This document shows positions 27,570 through 35,442 of a stretch of 64,000 nucleotides of DNA, in pieces (position 1 is the first letter of the stretch; each line of letters starts with the position of its first letter). Below the pieces are notes generated by a model that worked only from the letters and a program-made list of their open reading frames with translations, was not told the origin of the DNA and searched no databases. Origin of the DNA: Candidatus Undinarchaeota archaeon (GTDB taxonomy: Archaea; SpSt-1190; JASMDC01); the NCBI GenBank assembly GCA_964519305.1, contig CAZFHY010000003.1, forward strand, positions 98,211 to 162,210, given 5' to 3'. The position numbers and the translations under genes are program-made.

Positions 27570-29144
27570 TTAACCTTTCGTTAAAGGGCGTCGCGCCATA
27601 TACGGTCCCCTACGCTTGTAACCGAGCCTGCGGAAGTAGGGGCGGACACCTATGCCACTAAGGATGAGCAGGCGTTCCTTATCCTGTTCACGGGCCATTG
27701 ACTCGGCCTCTTCAAGGAGCTGGCGGCCAAGTCCGCGGTGCTGTATGGCCTCTCGTTCATGCCCACCCAGTGGGAGCGCCTCTCCGCACACACGAAGCTC
27801 ACGGACGATGGCGCAGTCCGTTCCCACTTCCTCGCGGTGCGCCTGGGGGGAAGGGAAGCGAAGACGGCAGTAGCCTAGGAGAGCGTCATCCTCATCATCG
27901 GCCGAGATGAAGAGCTCGGTACCGTTACCCGCTTCGTACTGTTCAATGTTGAAACCGATGGCTTCTGCCGGCGCTGGTCGCTCTTTGCGTTGCCCTCGAC
28001 CCACCTCTCGGCATCTGATGCACGAACACTTTGTGCCACGTTTCGCCATCTCCCTTTCGACGAGCTCTGCAAGGTTCCCCGCCAACACGCCATCAGCGAT
28101 GTGATTGGACGGGATGTCCCGTAGGATACGCATGGTGCGGACCCAGCGCGGCATCATGGACTTCACCTCGACCAGCAGATTCACCATCTCCTCTGTCGTT
28201 GGAGGGTGGTAGTCACCTTGACGCCATATATCGTACAATCCGGTCCCTTCCAGGACCTGCGTGGGGTAGACCTTGACCATATCGGGACAGAACCGTGGAT
28301 CGGTGAACACTTGGCGGAAGCTCTCGAGGTCCCGATCCCTGTTAGAACCAGGGAGCCCTGGCATGATGTGGTAATTGACCTTTAGCCCAGCATCACGGGC
28401 GGTCCTCGTCGCTTCAACAGCGTCCGCTACGGTGTGACCTCGTCCCACCAGCTCGTAAACATCATCGAAGACTGTCTGGACGCCTAGTTCTACCCTGGTA
28501 GCGCCCAGCCTGAGCATGAGGTCGATATGGTCCTCCCTACAGTAGTCAGGTCTCGTCTCGAAGGTTATGCTCACACAGCGATGCGAGGCATGCTCGTTCT
28601 TGCGCTGTGCCTCAAGGAGAGTAGGTGAATCTCCATTGTTGAGCGCATCGAGGCAACGATGGACGAAGTGCTCTTGCTCCGTGGGAGGACAGGAAGGAAA
28701 GGTACCTCCCATTATGATGAGCTCTACCTTGTCAGTAGAGTGCCCTGTCCTCTCCAGTTGTGTGACCCTAGCATTGGTCTGATCGAATGGATCGAATCCA
28801 TGGGCGATGGCCCGCATAGCCGCCGGTTCATGCCCTGTATAGCTCTGTGGTGCCTTATCGCCGCGGGGGCAGTAGGAGCAGGTTCCATGTGGACACGGTG
28901 CAGGTGCGCTCATGACGGCGATCACAGCCACACCCGAAAGGGAGCGGACAGGCTTCGTCCTCAGTACGGCGCGCCATTGCTTCTGTTCCTCCTCTGATAA
29001 GGCCGTGAGGACGTCCGCATTCGATGGTACACCGCCTAGTGCGAACTCGCGTGCGACTTCTAGCTTGATAGTGTTCAGGTCACCCGCACCTCGGATCTTG
29101 AGCTTCAGTATGATGGCTCCTGCTGCCTCCCTGGAAAGCTCCAC
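27570..29144 (-). CDS. elp3: Elp3 tRNA U34 carboxymethyltransferase (radical SAM plus KAT domain)
   Basis: KPVRSLSGVAVIAVM, CPHGTCSYCP, QSYTGHEP, IMGGTF, ETRPDYC, CIRCREVG, VREL..QHRGLG. Confidence 0.96.
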   Translation of the reverse strand: MELSREAAGAIILKLKIRGAGDLNTIKLEVAREFALGGVPSNADVLTALSEEEQKQWRAVLRTKPVRSLSGVAVIAVMSAPAPCPHGTCSYCPRGDKAPQSYTGHEPAAMRAIAHGFDPFDQTNARVTQLERTGHSTDKVELIIMGGTFPSCPPTEQEHFVHRCLDALNNGDSPTLLEAQRKNEHASHRCVSITFETRPDYCREDHIDLMLRLGATRVELGVQTVFDDVYELVGRGHTVADAVEATRTARDAGLKVNYHIMPGLPGSNRDRDLESFRQVFTDPRFCPDMVKVYPTQVLEGTGLYDIWRQGDYHPPTTEEMVNLLVEVKSMMPRWVRTMRILRDIPSNHIADGVLAGNLAELVEREMAKRGTKCSCIRCREVGRGQRKERPAPAEAIGFNIEQYEAGNGTELFISADDEDDALLGYCRLRFPSPQAHREEVGTDCAIVRELRVCGEALPLGGHEREAIQHRGLGRQLLEEAESMAREQDKERLLILSGIGVRPYFRRLGYKRRGPYMARRPLTKG

Positions 29145-29176: not shown

Positions 29177-29197
29177 ATGCCGGGGAGACTCGTTCGA

Positions 29198-30001
29198 ATG
29201 AAGGACGAGGTATCCGATAACGACGGACGGATCCGGGATGGGGAACCCCCGGTGACCATGAAGGCCGCTCAAAAGACCGAGCCCTCCGTCAAACCGCGGA
29301 CCACAAAGCCCGTTCACCCTGTACCAGCATCACGGTATCCCGGGGACGAGACCGGATTCTCCAACGAGGAGCGTGCCCTTGCCTTCGAGCTCATCGGCGA
29401 CCTTGCCGTTGTGGGACGCGCAGGCATCTTCAAACGGCTAGCGGCGGGCCTAATCGATATAACCCTCGTGCTTATTTTCATCGTATGGCCGTGCATGGTA
29501 GCAGTGACGTTCTCCTCGGACATCGACCTGAACGAGGCCGATAGCTTCGAACTATCGAGCGATGATCCCGAGCAGTTCATTGAGGAGCATCAGACCCTTT
29601 TCAACGCCATACAACGCGCCCTTATACTCTCTGGGATCCTGGTTATCGTCTACTTCGCGATTACAGAAGGGACATTAGGTCAGAGCATTGGGAAGGCGTT
29701 CATGGACATCGGAGTCATCGCTGAGGACACATCACCACTGGGTATCTCTGCGGCGCTTGGTCGTAACGTGCTCAAAGGAACCCTGATCGCTTCAATGGTG
29801 ACCGTGCTAGCACCCGTTGTCCTAGTAGTATTCCTTATTGACGTGATTTCCCTCATCTATGCTGATAAACACCAGCGTTACCTCGATCGGTTCGTAGGCT
29901 CGGTGTGTGTCGAGGGTTATGTGCTCGAACACAGCAAGAAAGGCTCAACCTCATCTACGGATGGCGAGTTCATTACATTCAAGGGGGCGGACAAGCGATG
30001 A
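29198..30001 (+). CDS. RDD family membrane protein
   Basis: AGIFKRLAAGLIDI, YF..EG..GQSIGK, RN..K, HQRYLDRFVGS; alternative start at 29177. Confidence 0.88.
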   Translation: MKDEVSDNDGRIRDGEPPVTMKAAQKTEPSVKPRTTKPVHPVPASRYPGDETGFSNEERALAFELIGDLAVVGRAGIFKRLAAGLIDITLVLIFIVWPCMVAVTFSSDIDLNEADSFELSSDDPEQFIEEHQTLFNAIQRALILSGILVIVYFAITEGTLGQSIGKAFMDIGVIAEDTSPLGISAALGRNVLKGTLIASMVTVLAPVVLVVFLIDVISLIYADKHQRYLDRFVGSVCVEGYVLEHSKKGSTSSTDGEFITFKGADKR

Positions 30002-30918: not shown

Positions 30919-31036
30919 CCTCTCTCATGAGTGTGGAACTGATGATGGATGGGCACCTGTAACGGATGACCATTATAGGGTCTCTGTGGCCTCTCATCGA
31001 CAAATTTATAAGTCAGGTGGGGCACAATTCCTTGAC

Positions 31037-31684
31037 ATGGAGCCCCTCCTATTACAAGGACTCCTCTCGTTTGGAATAGTTTGCGGGCTCTTTTACATAT
31101 TCTTCCACCGGGACCCTGAACGCATGCCTCCTGAAGAGGATGACATAATCCTTAGTCCGGCGGACGGTTGGATCAAGTGTGTTAAACGCATCATGCCCGG
31201 AGAGGTCCCCGTCGTAGAGAAATATGGTCGTGAGATCGAGCTTGTCGACCTGCCCCATATGGGGATTCTCGAAGAGGGTAAGGGCGGTTTCCTGGTAAGT
31301 GTCTACATGTCCCTCATGGACGTCCACGTGAACCGGTCCCCTGTGGGAGGGACGGTCGAGAACATCCAGTACCGACCGGGAAAGCTCAAGCTCCTCGTTG
31401 GACGCACTTTCCAGGCGGAGAACGAACGTAACACACTTGTGCTCCAGAATGAGGACCATGACATGAAAGTAGGTGTGGTCCAGATAGCTTCCCCCTTCGT
31501 GCGCAGGATCGATTGTTACGTCGCTGACGGTGAGCCTGTCGAGCTCGGTCAGCGGATCGGCATGATCCGGCTCGGGAGCCAGGTCGATCTAATCCTCCCT
31601 GACAAGAAAGGGCTCGAGATCGTGGCACACAAGGGGATGCGCGTTCGGGCTGGTACTTCAATCTTAGCTAGGTTACGAAGATGA
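31037..31684 (+). CDS. psd: Phosphatidyl/archaetidylserine decarboxylase proenzyme
   Basis: FFHRDPER, SPADG, MSLMDVHVNRSPV, ENERN, VVQIA, GMIRLGSQVDL (pyruvoyl cleavage site); TATA (TTTATAA, ~31005) upstream. Confidence 0.93.
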   Translation: MEPLLLQGLLSFGIVCGLFYIFFHRDPERMPPEEDDIILSPADGWIKCVKRIMPGEVPVVEKYGREIELVDLPHMGILEEGKGGFLVSVYMSLMDVHVNRSPVGGTVENIQYRPGKLKLLVGRTFQAENERNTLVLQNEDHDMKVGVVQIASPFVRRIDCYVADGEPVELGQRIGMIRLGSQVDLILPDKKGLEIVAHKGMRVRAGTSILARLRR

Positions 31685-32280
31685 GCTTCACATTCCTTTG
31701 CGAGGCAGCCAGGGACTTCCGCGCCATAGGCTCACCCATACCTTCCCTGGGGGTAGCTGTCCGGCTCATGGTCCGCCAGGCCGGAGTGAAGGAGGGGGAT
31801 GTCATTGCCGACGCGGGAGCCGGAACGGGTGTCATCGCGATCGAGGCTGCGCGTAAGGTCGGTCCATCCGGCCATGTCATAGCCGTCGAGAACAACAAGA
31901 ACCTCTGTAAAAAAGCACGCAAACGCATAAAACGCGCGGATATGGAAGACCGCATCACACTTATCGAGGGTGATGCCTTCAAACTGCGCAAGTACCTCGC
32001 GGACTTGGACGGACGACCCGATCGGTTCGACGCTGTGCTCTCGTCTGTGCCCATCAGCTATCTACCCGATCCGACAGTTTATATCAAGAGCCTAGCGGAC
32101 GCGACCAAGCCCGGCGGCACTGTCGTTCAGGAGACCCATTTTGCACAGAAGGTAAGACACCTATTCCGTGAGGTAGGTCTCCAAGGGATCCACTCAGCTT
32201 TCACTATCATCACCTTCGCTCCTGGAGCAGTAGTCTCAGGAAAAGTACCGAATGAAGTCAAGGTGTCCGGCCAACGATGA
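31681..32280 (+). CDS. pmtA: SAM methyltransferase resembling Sinorhizobium/Agrobacterium-type phospholipid N-methyltransferase
   Basis: F..DFRAIGSPIPS, DAGAGTGVI, AVE, IEGDAFKL, FDAVLSSVP, GGTVVQET; coupled by ATGA overlaps to psd and pssA. Confidence 0.72.
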   Translation: MSFTFLCEAARDFRAIGSPIPSLGVAVRLMVRQAGVKEGDVIADAGAGTGVIAIEAARKVGPSGHVIAVENNKNLCKKARKRIKRADMEDRITLIEGDAFKLRKYLADLDGRPDRFDAVLSSVPISYLPDPTVYIKSLADATKPGGTVVQETHFAQKVRHLFREVGLQGIHSAFTIITFAPGAVVSGKVPNEVKVSGQR

Positions 32281-32978
32281 TCCGTGGGATGCTCGCTTTC
32301 ATTGGAATAAAGGATCTGGTCACGATCTGCAACGCCTTCGCCGGCTGCGCCGCGATCGTCGTGGCTGCCAAAGGGGGGAACGTTCCGCTCGCATGCGGGC
32401 TCATCTTCCTTGCAGCGGTGTTCGACTTCCTCGATGGTGGGTTGGCGCGCGCTACAGCACCCAATCCCTTCGGCAAGGAACTGGACTCGCTCTGTGATGC
32501 CATCTCCTTCGGATTGGCACCGGCCTTACTTGTGTTCTTCCAGGGCCCGACCGTACCTCTTCACTACCTCGCAGCTCCCTTGATATACCTTGGCGGGGCG
32601 ATCTTCCGCTTGGCACGCTTTAATGTCACGACACAGAAGAACTTTACCGGGATACCTTCGCCTGCGGCAGCCCTCACAGCAGCGGCCTTGACGCTTGCAG
32701 GTCTTTCATGGCAGATGCTCCATGGTACACTTGTCGTGCTTTCTTTCCTTATGATCTGCGACATCGAGTACCCGTCGCAGAAGAACCTCAAGTCCAGCCA
32801 GATACTCTTCATCGCTATCCTGGGCGTGATTGCCTACATTGGGGTCAGCTCTCTGGGAGGTAACGTCCTTGGGACCGCTGGGTCCGCAATAGGTGTTGGC
32901 TACATACTCTCCCCTCTCGTTCTGTACGGGAATGCATCTGATCATGAAGAAGAGACTAAGGATACGGACGAGGAGTGA
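32277..32978 (+). CDS. pssA: CDP-alcohol phosphatidyltransferase, phosphatidyl/archaetidylserine synthase
   Basis: DFLDGGLAR..FGKELDSLCDAISFGLAP, FRLARFN, FTGIPSP. Confidence 0.93.
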   Translation: MIRGMLAFIGIKDLVTICNAFAGCAAIVVAAKGGNVPLACGLIFLAAVFDFLDGGLARATAPNPFGKELDSLCDAISFGLAPALLVFFQGPTVPLHYLAAPLIYLGGAIFRLARFNVTTQKNFTGIPSPAAALTAAALTLAGLSWQMLHGTLVVLSFLMICDIEYPSQKNLKSSQILFIAILGVIAYIGVSSLGGNVLGTAGSAIGVGYILSPLVLYGNASDHEEETKDTDEE

Positions 32979-33029: not shown

Positions 33030-33707
33030 ATGGGCCATGGAATGGGTCTAACCGATGAAATGCGGTATCTACTCATAGTCTCTCTCTTCGGCTTCACGGG
33101 AGTGATCCTTGCGTGGGCACTGAACATGGTGTTCGTGTATCTTGCCAATGAGATCGTCGTGTCGCTGGGTGCAGTTGGGCGTCTCATTCCTGGTCTCGCT
33201 GACCATCTCGTGACCTTGGTATCTGGTTCGCTTTGGGGCTTCTTCGTATTCCTAGGCGTGGTCCAAGCCCGAGGGAAACGACAGAAGACTACCACATCAC
33301 AGTTTACCTTGTGTTCCATTTCCTTGGGATTCGCTCTTCTGGGCGCGAGCGCAGTGATCGAGCTCCTAGGTATGATACTTCCCGGGCTAGTTAATGTAGT
33401 CGGCCATATCCTGCATGGAGCGCTCCTCGGATGCCTCTACGGTTCCTTCCTGGCACTTATCATGCGGCTGGATGTCTGGCACATGTTCGTACCCCTCCTC
33501 AGTGTAGGTGGGGCGGTCGGCGCCTTAGCGGTAAGGGTCCTCCAAGATGTTCCCACTAGCGCCCAGGGGACTATCGAAGTGTATCTCTCTCAGTACGCCT
33601 TTACGTCCCAAGGATTCGTGCTCGGATTGTTCGCGGGATACGCATTCTTCCTGTGCGACATGCATATGGGGATCTTGCGTCATGCCCGGTGGATGCCGGA
33701 GGACTAG
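33030..33707 (+). CDS. Hypothetical multi-TM membrane protein
   Basis: About six Gly-rich hydrophobic helices; TTTAAATT about 30 nt upstream. Confidence 0.7.
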   Translation: MGHGMGLTDEMRYLLIVSLFGFTGVILAWALNMVFVYLANEIVVSLGAVGRLIPGLADHLVTLVSGSLWGFFVFLGVVQARGKRQKTTTSQFTLCSISLGFALLGASAVIELLGMILPGLVNVVGHILHGALLGCLYGSFLALIMRLDVWHMFVPLLSVGGAVGALAVRVLQDVPTSAQGTIEVYLSQYAFTSQGFVLGLFAGYAFFLCDMHMGILRHARWMPED

Positions 33708-35035
33708 CTGTCCTCTACCGGTTCTTCCTCCCTTAAGCGTGCGACCTCTTTCCTGAGACGGTGTACGATCTCGCGGTCAGGGAGCAGACCGTCGGGTGCT
33801 TCCAAGGGTGCCCGCATGCGAACAGGTACACCATCCATACGGTACGCTGTCCCCTCGGACTCGATTCCGGTGAAAGCGCAGGGGATGTAAACGTCCGCGA
33901 GCTCGGATGTGACGTTCCATACAGGATCGATGACGATGACCGGGATGCGTCGTAGGGCGCCGAGGGACTTGAGCGGTAAGTGGGCAGCAGGATCCGAGGC
34001 CACCACTAGGAGACAATCGCACTCACCCGAGGAGAGGACCGGGAACAGGTCGGTCTCACCGGGATTATAGCGGGGGTGCCCGCGGGAGAGATCGACGGCG
34101 AAAGGGTAACCCGTTCGCCAAGTGAACGCTTCACATGCACCCGTGACATTGAAATGTCCTCGCATAGGAAGGACAACGGCCTTCGTATGTTCGCTCAGGT
34201 CCCTGAGGAGCGAGAGGAGGGCGTCAACGTTACGATGGCGCCCCGTTGATGTTGTCAGTCCCAGTCCGAAGAAAAAGGCACAGAACTCGCTGTCTTTGAG
34301 CTTGTCAGAGAGCCATCGGAGCTCATCCAGTGGAATCCCATCGATGGAGTCGGGCATATCCTGTCCTTGGATGAGCATACGTAAGGCACAGAGCACCTCG
34401 TAATCACTCCCCGGTCTGACCTTTATGAACCTGTCGGCCACCTCGGCCGTACCCGTGGGACGGACATCTACCACGACCACCTGTCGATCGTCACGGCCTT
34501 TCTTCCGGAACGCACCTTCTGGGAAGACAGAGTAGCGGCTCATGTGCCGGTCGTGTGATGCGGCGGGATTCGAGCCCCAGTACACCACACAGTCTGCATG
34601 GTTGAGCACCTCGCCAAGCGTCGCTGAAGAGATCCCTACTTCTTGGACGGCTTGGATGGAGGGTCCGTGGCAGAAGGATGAGCAGTTGTCGATCAGGGCT
34701 CCAAGTTCCTCCGCGAGGTCGAGCCCCTCGCATATGGTCTCAGTACTTGTTGAGCTCCAACCGAACAGGACGGGGCGCTCGGCCTTTTCAAGCAGCATTG
34801 CCGCCTGTTTCAGGGATTCATCCAGTGTGGCATCGCGGAAGTGGTCCGTCCGGACTTCCTTGAAATCTCCGTTCTTCACTCTGATCCTGGGGACGAGCTC
34901 TCGAGATGATGGCTTGGAGAATGCATGATCGCCGACCTTACAGGCATTGCATACATCCTCGATCGTGTTCTCTGAAGTACGCACTTCGATATCGTCACAT
35001 AGGCATCCGCAATAGGGACACACGACATCTTTCAA
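33704..35035 (-). CDS. fwdB: Formylmethanofuran dehydrogenase subunit B (Mo/W-pterin)
   Basis: CPYCGCLCDDI Fe-S motif, SFCHGPS metal ligand (Cys, not Sec), YWGSNP..HDRHMSRYS, PMRGHFNV, GTAYRMDGVP. Confidence 0.93.
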   Translation of the reverse strand: MKDVVCPYCGCLCDDIEVRTSENTIEDVCNACKVGDHAFSKPSSRELVPRIRVKNGDFKEVRTDHFRDATLDESLKQAAMLLEKAERPVLFGWSSTSTETICEGLDLAEELGALIDNCSSFCHGPSIQAVQEVGISSATLGEVLNHADCVVYWGSNPAASHDRHMSRYSVFPEGAFRKKGRDDRQVVVVDVRPTGTAEVADRFIKVRPGSDYEVLCALRMLIQGQDMPDSIDGIPLDELRWLSDKLKDSEFCAFFFGLGLTTSTGRHRNVDALLSLLRDLSEHTKAVVLPMRGHFNVTGACEAFTWRTGYPFAVDLSRGHPRYNPGETDLFPVLSSGECDCLLVVASDPAAHLPLKSLGALRRIPVIVIDPVWNVTSELADVYIPCAFTGIESEGTAYRMDGVPVRMRAPLEAPDGLLPDREIVHRLRKEVARLREEEPVEDS

Positions 35036-35442
35036 GGTACAGCCCTCCTGAGAAGGTCGCGTACACTCTCTACATCCTCACCAAGCGCCCGTGATACTCT
35101 GGCATCCAGACCTTTGAGACCTGGTAATCCTGAGCCCTCGCATGCATCGGTGCTCACAGCACTGGCCCATGGGCCAATAGGTATCGATACAAGTCCCTTC
35201 ATACCCTCGAGGCCAGCCAGTACCCGGACGACGACCGATCCGCCATCGGTAGTAACGCGGACGGTATCTCCTTCTGCCACGCCCAACGAACGCATGTCCG
35301 ATGGAGCAAGGGAACAAATCCCTACGTTCTCGCGGTATTCAGCGTGGAGCTTCTTATGGATGGTCGTACCCTGGCCTACAGTGCGCATGGTGACCAGGGT
35401 GAGCGTCAGCTCCTTAGACCGTCCCATGGCTATGGTCCCCAC
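35032..35442 (-). CDS. fwdD: Formylmethanofuran dehydrogenase subunit D
   Basis: LVTMRTVGQG, DMRSLGVAEGDTVRVTT, IPIGPWAS, GLPGLKG; overlaps the fwdB start. Confidence 0.88.
   Translation of the reverse strand: MGTIAMGRSKELTLTLVTMRTVGQGTTIHKKLHAEYRENVGICSLAPSDMRSLGVAEGDTVRVTTDGGSVVVRVLAGLEGMKGLVSIPIGPWASAVSTDACEGSGLPGLKGLDARVSRALGEDVESVRDLLRRAVP

Follow-up and report, generated by a model that had tools for sequence, protein, structure and literature searches.

The archaeon Methanopyrus kandleri reportedly contains archaetidylcholine, to judge from the title of a 2002 paper by Nishihara. Choline and N-methyl-ethanolamine head groups on archaeol are known from Methanopyrus, Methanoperedens and environmental samples. 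For instance, monomethyl- and dimethyl-phosphatidylethanolamine (MMPE and DMPE) archaeol were described in Ca. Methanoperedens (accessible text of PMC6581649), and archaeols with phosphatidylethanolamine (PE), MMPE, DMPE and phosphatidylcholine (PC) head groups were reported from springs (accessible text of PMC13032954). Here, a stretch of 64,000 nucleotides from a Candidatus Undinarchaeota archaeon (hereafter the window; G000:C3:98211-162210) was found to carry a psd-pssA operon with a methyltransferase gene (MT) between the two, and MT probably encodes an as yet unassigned enzyme that methylates archaeal ethanolamine head groups towards choline. We consider it rather likely that its product is an archaetidylethanolamine N-methyltransferase, acting in head-group N-methylation; what the analysis shows directly is the order of the genes, the family to which MT belongs, its conserved residues, its distribution among genomes and the synteny. 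The candidate gene for these head groups, encoding 199 aa in the window and 182 aa in Methanopyrus, is now specific and would lengthen the archaeal head-group pathway by one step.

Our search of a library of papers returned no gene assigned to archaeal head-group methylation, putative database entries aside, and no paper that joins Methanopyrus, phosphatidylethanolamine and N-methyltransferase. Likewise, choline lipids and head-group methyltransferases both go unmentioned in a 2022 review on how archaea make phospholipids. The accessible text of PMC13032954 (2026) refers to putative EC 2.1.1.17 and 2.1.1.71 enzymes listed by KEGG in more than 30 archaeal species. A preliminary description of this DNA had noted that no methylating gene was known to be assigned in archaea, which agrees with the literature found here but has to be qualified by these putative PE N-methyltransferases of KEGG.

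The gene psd (positions 31037..31684, forward strand) is a 215-aa open reading frame with its ATG at 31037, and encodes a putative archaetidylserine/phosphatidylserine decarboxylase proenzyme. It is followed on the same strand by MT (31681..32280), which encodes a class I S-adenosylmethionine (SAM)-dependent methyltransferase of 199 aa, and by pssA (32277..32978), which encodes a CDP-alcohol phosphatidyltransferase of the serine-transferring type (233 aa; putative archaetidylserine synthase). Both junctions consist of ATGA, the MT start lying on the psd stop and the pssA start on the MT stop, and the trio is kept with identical 4-nt overlaps in the sister genome G001 of the same genus. A TATA-like octamer, TTTATAAG (31005..31012, forward strand), lies 25 nt upstream of the psd ATG and may act as the promoter; its spacing to the ATG would imply a leaderless or very short-leader transcript. 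The octamer occurs once in the 64-kb window, which is not significant alone, because shuffled sequence yielded at least one copy in 24 of 100 shuffles. Both the octamer and its flanks are kept in G001, at 89% mean column identity in an alignment that runs from the last part of the preceding gene into the beginning of psd. The ATGA-coupled trio behind a TATA box, as first described, is thus present with both overlaps and the octamer, and is conserved in the sister genome. The three genes are likely to form one transcription unit. In the search of sequencing runs, eight DNA runs from two marine or seawater metagenome studies matched, which may be where the assembly comes from, and none of RNA was listed.

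The MT protein resembles the S-type PmtA of Agrobacterium tumefaciens (AtPmtA) in size (199 versus 197 aa), and each has a single Rossmann domain. It shares with S-type PmtA the (D/E)xGxGxG motif, an acidic residue after strand 2, D-A-F, an S-x-V-P motif IV, a V-Q-x-T strand and an N-terminal G-[AS]-x-x-P-[ST]. The five segments that had been listed as a PmtA pattern are all in the 199-aa protein, namely RAIGSPIPS (14-22), GAGTGVI (46-52), IEGDAF (95-100), FDAVLSSVP (116-124) and VVQ (148-150). Unlike S-type PmtA, the MT family splits off outside the crown group of bacterial PmtA/OlsG sequences, its host is an archaeon with a predicted ether-isoprenoid backbone, and the gene lies inside a psd-pssA operon. 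Among lipid methyltransferase models, the top score was obtained with OlsG (NF041658; 49 bits, residues 4-164 on profile positions 6-163 of 191), followed by the Agrobacterium-type PmtA (NF045881; 41.6 bits in hmmscan, residues 9-150 on profile positions 23-158 of 197, and 40.8 bits in a six-frame genome search). These two are the NCBIfam matches that extend furthest towards the N-terminus of MT. The operon MT is reciprocally the best OlsG-model match genome-wide in all five genomes compared (G000, G001, G029, G041 and G042), although its neighbours are serine and ethanolamine head-group genes and not ols genes. In Pfam, several generic class I methyltransferase families matched, including partial matches above the gathering score to Ubie_methyltran (PF01209; 39.6 bits, profile positions 40-150 of 233) and to GCD14, the TrmI family (PF08704; 34 bits, profile positions 31-121 of 247).

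Close relatives of MT are few. A word-indexed search of 5.8 billion proteins yielded three close clusters with 85-90% identity to MT, and beyond these the best match in that search had an E-value of 4e-12 at 61% query coverage. When 1.84 billion representatives were searched exhaustively with HMMER, using a query profile made of the window clade and one Methanopyrus sequence, 20,612 matches were obtained at E <= 0.001, but only five of them are strong relatives over the full length. These are the window clade and Methanopyrus, together with three singletons on short contigs of metagenomes (P0046, 160 bits; P0047, 141 bits; P0048, 123 bits). PmtA was the best NCBIfam model for P0046 and P0047, and OlsG for P0048. 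Thirteen weaker full-length matches (about 62-72 bits), hand-picked from the best 150 listed, were also tested against NCBIfam, with OlsG as the best model in all 13 and PmtA matching as well in 12. For several MT relatives, the source annotation (JGI) reads 'phospholipid N-methyltransferase'. Nine alphaproteobacterial sequences (111-181 bits) served as PmtA-like references; a search for PmtA in 81 Alphaproteobacteria genomes gave none at the cut-off of 250 bits. The alphaproteobacterial tally (14 of 81) takes in the unpublished genome G098, whose locus was left out.

Profile alignment (hhalign) of the archaeal family with 22 PmtA/OlsG-like sequences covered 182 columns (residues 4-189, score 278), while that with 32 other high-scoring methyltransferases covered a core of 137 columns (residues 21-159, score 250). 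Within this 137-column core, identity is higher to the 32 other methyltransferases than to the PmtA/OlsG-like set. In a phylogenetic tree, the archaeal family together with the PmtA/OlsG-like sequences was split from the 32 others (SH-aLRT 99), and the same split was recovered from core columns only, with both termini excluded (SH-aLRT 99), and after seven archaeal sequences, four of TrmI and three of KsgA, had been added (SH-aLRT 92, not starred). Inside the clan, P0046 and P0047 join the window clade, Methanopyrus is close by, and the bacterial PmtA/OlsG crown group stands apart. The trees accordingly speak for membership in the PmtA/OlsG clan, not for PmtA orthology. In a search of PDB with the combined profile, AtPmtA (9KO3) came first by far at 124 bits. 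It had been asked earlier whether the protein clusters with tRNA or quinone methyltransferases; in the three trees it falls with the PmtA/OlsG-like proteins, apart from TrmI, KsgA and UbiE-like enzymes. These comparisons suggest a divergent member, of a His type, of the S-type PmtA/OlsG lipid N-methyltransferase clan.

The residues of MT were mapped onto AtPmtA (PDB 9KO3), with residue roles according to the accessible text of PMC12139422 and PMC3972451. The SAM-binding motif of S-type PmtA is present, E58xG60xG62xG64 of AtPmtA corresponding to D44xG46xG48xG50, and so are the cofactor contacts E84 (E70 in MT) and D106-A107 in D106-A107-F108 (D98-A99 in D98-A99-F100). Moreover, A128 corresponds to S122, T36 to S22 and Q158 to Q150. 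The segment that lines the head-group site, A32-I-V-P-T36 (A32-T36, aligned with S18-S22 of MT), has its counterpart in G17-S-P-I-P21-S22. The pattern G[AS]xxP[ST] ahead of the SAM motif is found in all nine members of the family and in 13 of the 22 PmtA/OlsG-like sequences, but in none of the 32 other methyltransferases. The specificity residue I159 is E151 in the window and Leu in Methanopyrus. According to the accessible text of PMC12139422, an Ile/Phe switch at this position bears on the extent of methylation; by analogy, the Leu of Methanopyrus would fit full methylation to choline. At the position of the catalytic Tyr161, which is described as essential in S-type Pmts in the accessible texts of PMC12139422 and PMC13669648, MT carries His153. 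A His at this position also occurs in P0097 and P0130, the two most OlsG-like relatives (OlsG 189 and 182 bits), which have the same T-H pair as MT 152-153, while Tyr is retained in P0046-P0048.

Among 401 archaeal species genomes, 36 matched the MT family at E <= 1e-18, and eight of these have a strong full-length orthologue (255-276 bits), namely G000 and G001 of the window's genus and all six genomes of Methanopyrus (genus g26). By phylum, the orthologue is found in 2 of 17 genomes in that of G000 and in 6 of 6 in that of G029, a genome identified as Methanopyrus by exact protein look-up (two matches), in which MT is annotated 'TRM11 family'. The Methanopyrus protein (WP_148688450, AAM01380.1 / Q8TYX8) is a true orthologue with 33-37% identity over the full length, and has the same motifs, including the His at the Tyr161 position. 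With 182 aa, it is without the 7-residue insert (107-113) and the C-terminal tail of the window MT. The two hosts also differ, Methanopyrus being a hyperthermophilic methanogen and the window host a marine, mesophile-type metagenomic lineage. Methanopyrus, which had been named in the preliminary description as an archaeon with choline lipids, thus turns out to host the only distant orthologues of MT.

In Methanopyrus, MT lies directly 5' of psd-pssA on one strand, so that the order is MT-psd-pssA and not psd-MT-pssA as in the window. This arrangement is complete in four of the six genomes (G029, G041, G042 and G043); the contig of G044 ends after the psd start and that of G045 ends 112 nt past MT. 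The linkage of MT to psd and pssA in relatives, which had been named as a check, is therefore present in the sole distant orthologues. In five further genomes (G018, G023, G024, G026 and G040), psd adjoins pssA with no space for MT between them, and a family profile search gave no MT family member in these five. The simplest reading of this pattern would be an ancestral psd-pssA pair into which MT was inserted in two different ways. The idea that the operon passed as a unit between Methanopyrus and the window lineage found no support: among matches outside the genus, Methanopyrus ranks only fifth of seven for Psd and eighth of ten for PssA. A recent transfer of this kind is not indicated, because for neither Psd nor PssA are the two lineages closest to one another.

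The other 28 of the 36 matching genomes score at most 80 bits; the match is confined to the core in 27 of them and full-length in one, G300, an archaeal genome of 1.0 Mb. The G300 gene (L104 3998-4567 = G300:C1:78897-79466, reverse strand) encodes a full-length PmtA/OlsG-like methyltransferase of 189 aa (OlsG 78 bits, PmtA 74 bits), from which it follows that the S-type Pmt/OlsG clan has further archaeal members. Its neighbours encode a DEAD helicase, OMP decarboxylase, MazG and Rpe, with no lipid genes among them. Separately, 43 loci retrieved by a contig search on generic SAM-motif patterns included no MT orthologue, and the Nanoarchaeota loci L024 and L033 were rejected as FkbM-type methyltransferases within glycosylation clusters.

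Several observations weigh against the assignment of MT as an archaetidylethanolamine N-methyltransferase. The equivalog cut-offs of both lipid methyltransferase models are missed widely (OlsG 49 versus 350 bits, PmtA 41.6 versus 250 bits), and the top NCBIfam matches are core-only, MpqE for the window MT (53 bits) and CpaM for Methanopyrus (59 bits). In the protein atlas, MT falls by generic UbiE-like small methyltransferase clusters. With the archaeal-only profile, the PDB search put TrmI first (65 bits) and AtPmtA 9KO3 sixth (51 bits), and Foldseek on the AF2 model (pLDDT 87) retrieved generic class I methyltransferases with TrmI on top (TM 0.66, E 5e-12). Structure is uninformative on the substrate of MT, because only generic class I folds were found in this way. 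The trees were made by a 'quick' method with outgroups that we chose ourselves from the match list, and the synteny evidence comes from two lineages only. The segment before GSPIPS has 16 residues as against about 31 in AtPmtA, about 14 fewer, and a membrane-binding helix would therefore be short. The amphipathic membrane-binding helix of AtPmtA spans residues 5-24; the AF2 model of MT has a helix at residues 2-11 with low confidence (pLDDT 50-59), and residues 2-13 have a hydrophobic moment of 0.53. Finally, Tyr161 is replaced by His throughout the window clade and in every Methanopyrus sequence examined, so that a defining feature of S-type PmtA is lacking. The PmtA pattern claimed at the outset consequently holds for the motifs and the clan placement, but the protein is not a PmtA equivalog and has His153 in place of Tyr161. 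By sequence, MT would work like an S-type Pmt or OlsG, yet it scores below the family cut-offs and lacks the catalytic Tyr.

Some of these points would suit a housekeeping enzyme acting on tRNA, rRNA, protein or a small molecule, for which a place among lipid genes would be meaningless. The tRNA m1A58 methyltransferase TrmI (PDB 3LGA/3LHD) is the best match to the Rossmann core of MT among solved structures, both by sequence and by fold; the partial matches to GCD14 and Ubie_methyltran exceed their gathering scores; the protein-atlas neighbours are UbiE-like; and the names 'TRM11 family' (NCBI, for the Methanopyrus protein) and 'UbiE' (JGI, for a close homologue) point the same way. However, the TrmI- and UbiE-type matches are confined to the Rossmann core (at most residues 21-173 of 199), and UbiE/MenG (PF01209) gives no full-length match. 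MT is without the N-terminal domain of TrmI, and the trees set its family apart from the four TrmI sequences, from KsgA and from the 32 UbiE-like and other methyltransferases. Better TrmI candidates exist elsewhere in the genomes (46 bits on G000:C9, 80.6 bits in G029), and so do separate, full KsgA genes. To our knowledge, Methanopyrus-type methanogens are not quinone makers. Moreover, the window's genus retains the translational coupling of MT inside a lipid operon, and MT adjoins psd-pssA in a second phylum in another order. The core-only matches, the separate TrmI and KsgA genes, the trees and the tight psd-pssA linkage together weaken the housekeeping explanation, which we regard as unlikely, with a small but appreciable chance of being right.

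The loss of the catalytic Tyr of S-type Pmts could also mean that MT is an inactive remnant and that the operon yields serine and ethanolamine lipids only. However, the open reading frame is intact, all SAM-binding residues are kept in the window clade and in the examined Methanopyrus sequences at about 33-37% identity, His153 does not vary in either clade and is found again in OlsG-like relatives, and the AF2 model is confident. Because MT is conserved across two phyla, we hold an inactive remnant to be highly improbable.

The flanking genes encode putative enzymes for serine and ethanolamine head groups. Psd matches PF02666 with 141 bits (gathering score 22) over profile positions 3-197 of 198, and is the sole PF02666 match in the G000 genome; against the NCBIfam PSD equivalogs it lies just below the cut-offs (171 versus 183 bits, and 162 versus 230 bits for TIGR00164). 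Its IRLGSQVD segment holds LGS at what we take to be the expected self-cleavage site. PssA matches PF01066 with 56 bits and passes the cut-off of TIGR00473 pssA (124.9 versus 107 bits), but stays below those of the archaeal-specific models, with 133 versus 240 bits for archaetidylserine synthase (NF038087) and 109 versus 200 bits for TIGR04217. It carries a DG-x2-AR...G-x3-D-x3-D segment, presumably the motif of its family. The lipid backbone had been left open in the preliminary description, which had only the window to go by. Since the G000 genome encodes the CDP-archaeol synthase CarS (PF01864, 112 bits) and geranylgeranylglyceryl phosphate (GGGP) synthase (PF01884, 224 bits), the backbone is indicated to be archaeal, that is, of ether lipids. 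Two separate CarS-like genes are present in this genome (G000:C5:134968-135474 and G000:C6:149451-149936), as are four CDP-alcohol phosphatidyltransferase genes altogether, two of them 2 kb apart on C6.

In the proposed pathway, PssA would join serine and CDP-archaeol to form archaetidylserine, which Psd would decarboxylate to archaetidylethanolamine. MT, a soluble or peripheral protein with a Rossmann fold, may then transfer one to three methyl groups from SAM to the nitrogen of the ethanolamine head group, which would yield monomethyl- and dimethyl-ethanolamine archaeol and possibly archaetidylcholine. The head-group site would be lined by G-S-P-I-P-S and the strand Q150-E-T-H153, like A32-T36 and Q158-I-S-Y161 in AtPmtA, with His153 presumably standing in for the catalytic Tyr. 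The substrate, the products, the number of methylations and co-transcription of the genes are inferred. The route from CDP-lipid through serine and ethanolamine to methylated lipids, which had been put forward from the window, is supported as a candidate by the family placement of MT and by the synteny in Methanopyrus.

A lipid-related enzyme might alternatively act on another acceptor. This could be archaetidylserine at its amino group, an amino lipid of a different kind, in the way that OlsG uses ornithine lipid, or a position of the head group other than nitrogen. The OlsG model scores slightly above the PmtA model (49 versus 41.6 bits), the T-H pair 152-153 is common to the OlsG-like P0097 and P0130, and MT sits between psd and pssA in the window, so that the product of either enzyme could be its substrate. 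However, we know of no N-methylserine lipids from Methanopyrus, and archaetidylcholine, to go by the title mentioned above, is the sole known lipid that needs N-methylation in this genus, the only characterised one among the hosts. Ornithine lipids are absent from archaea according to the accessible text of a review (PMC3972451). Another acceptor is accordingly judged quite unlikely, and archaetidylethanolamine remains the preferred substrate.

Going further, the His-type family might be the missing archaeal route to choline lipids, recruited twice, at different positions, into the ancestral psd-pssA operon and trimethylating archaetidylethanolamine by a His-based form of the S-type Pmt mechanism. 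We put this forward tentatively and rate its chance at somewhat below even. If true, the choline lipid of Methanopyrus would be explained by the His-type MT family, and methyl-ethanolamine or choline archaeol would be predicted in an uncultured marine lineage with a 3.6-Mb genome. With MT, the ongoing discussion of how Pmts catalyse methylation gains a natural variant that has His for Tyr. Should its function be confirmed, MT could further serve as a genomic marker when methylated PE-archaeol biomarkers are interpreted.

Finally, other genes surround the operon in the window. A multi-pass membrane protein of 225 aa without Pfam match is encoded 51 nt past the pssA stop (33030-33707, forward strand); its position is kept in G001 (L002 2826-3527), and the gene may be co-transcribed with psd-MT-pssA. 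Further downstream, two overlapping genes on the reverse strand (33704-35442) code for a 443-aa molybdopterin oxidoreductase (PF00384) and a molydopterin dinucleotide-binding protein of 136 aa (PF01568), which we take to resemble formylmethanofuran dehydrogenase subunits of the B/D type. The genes upstream of the operon encode an ELP3-like radical SAM protein (27570-29144, reverse strand), a membrane protein of the RDD family (29177-30001) and a signal-peptide peptidase of family S49, whose gene extends to 30918 and ends 119 nt before psd.

The G000 genome comprises 3.63 Mb in 42 contigs. It and its sister G001 (3.8 Mb) are far larger than the other 15 species genomes of the phylum (0.6-1.2 Mb). 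A psd match was found in none of these 15 small genomes, while G000 has psd, pssA, CarS and GGGP synthase. Among their reduced relatives, G000 and G001 thus look like a lineage with large genomes that apparently makes its own lipids. One protein with 85% identity is labelled 'Candidatus Undinarchaeales archaeon' by NCBI.

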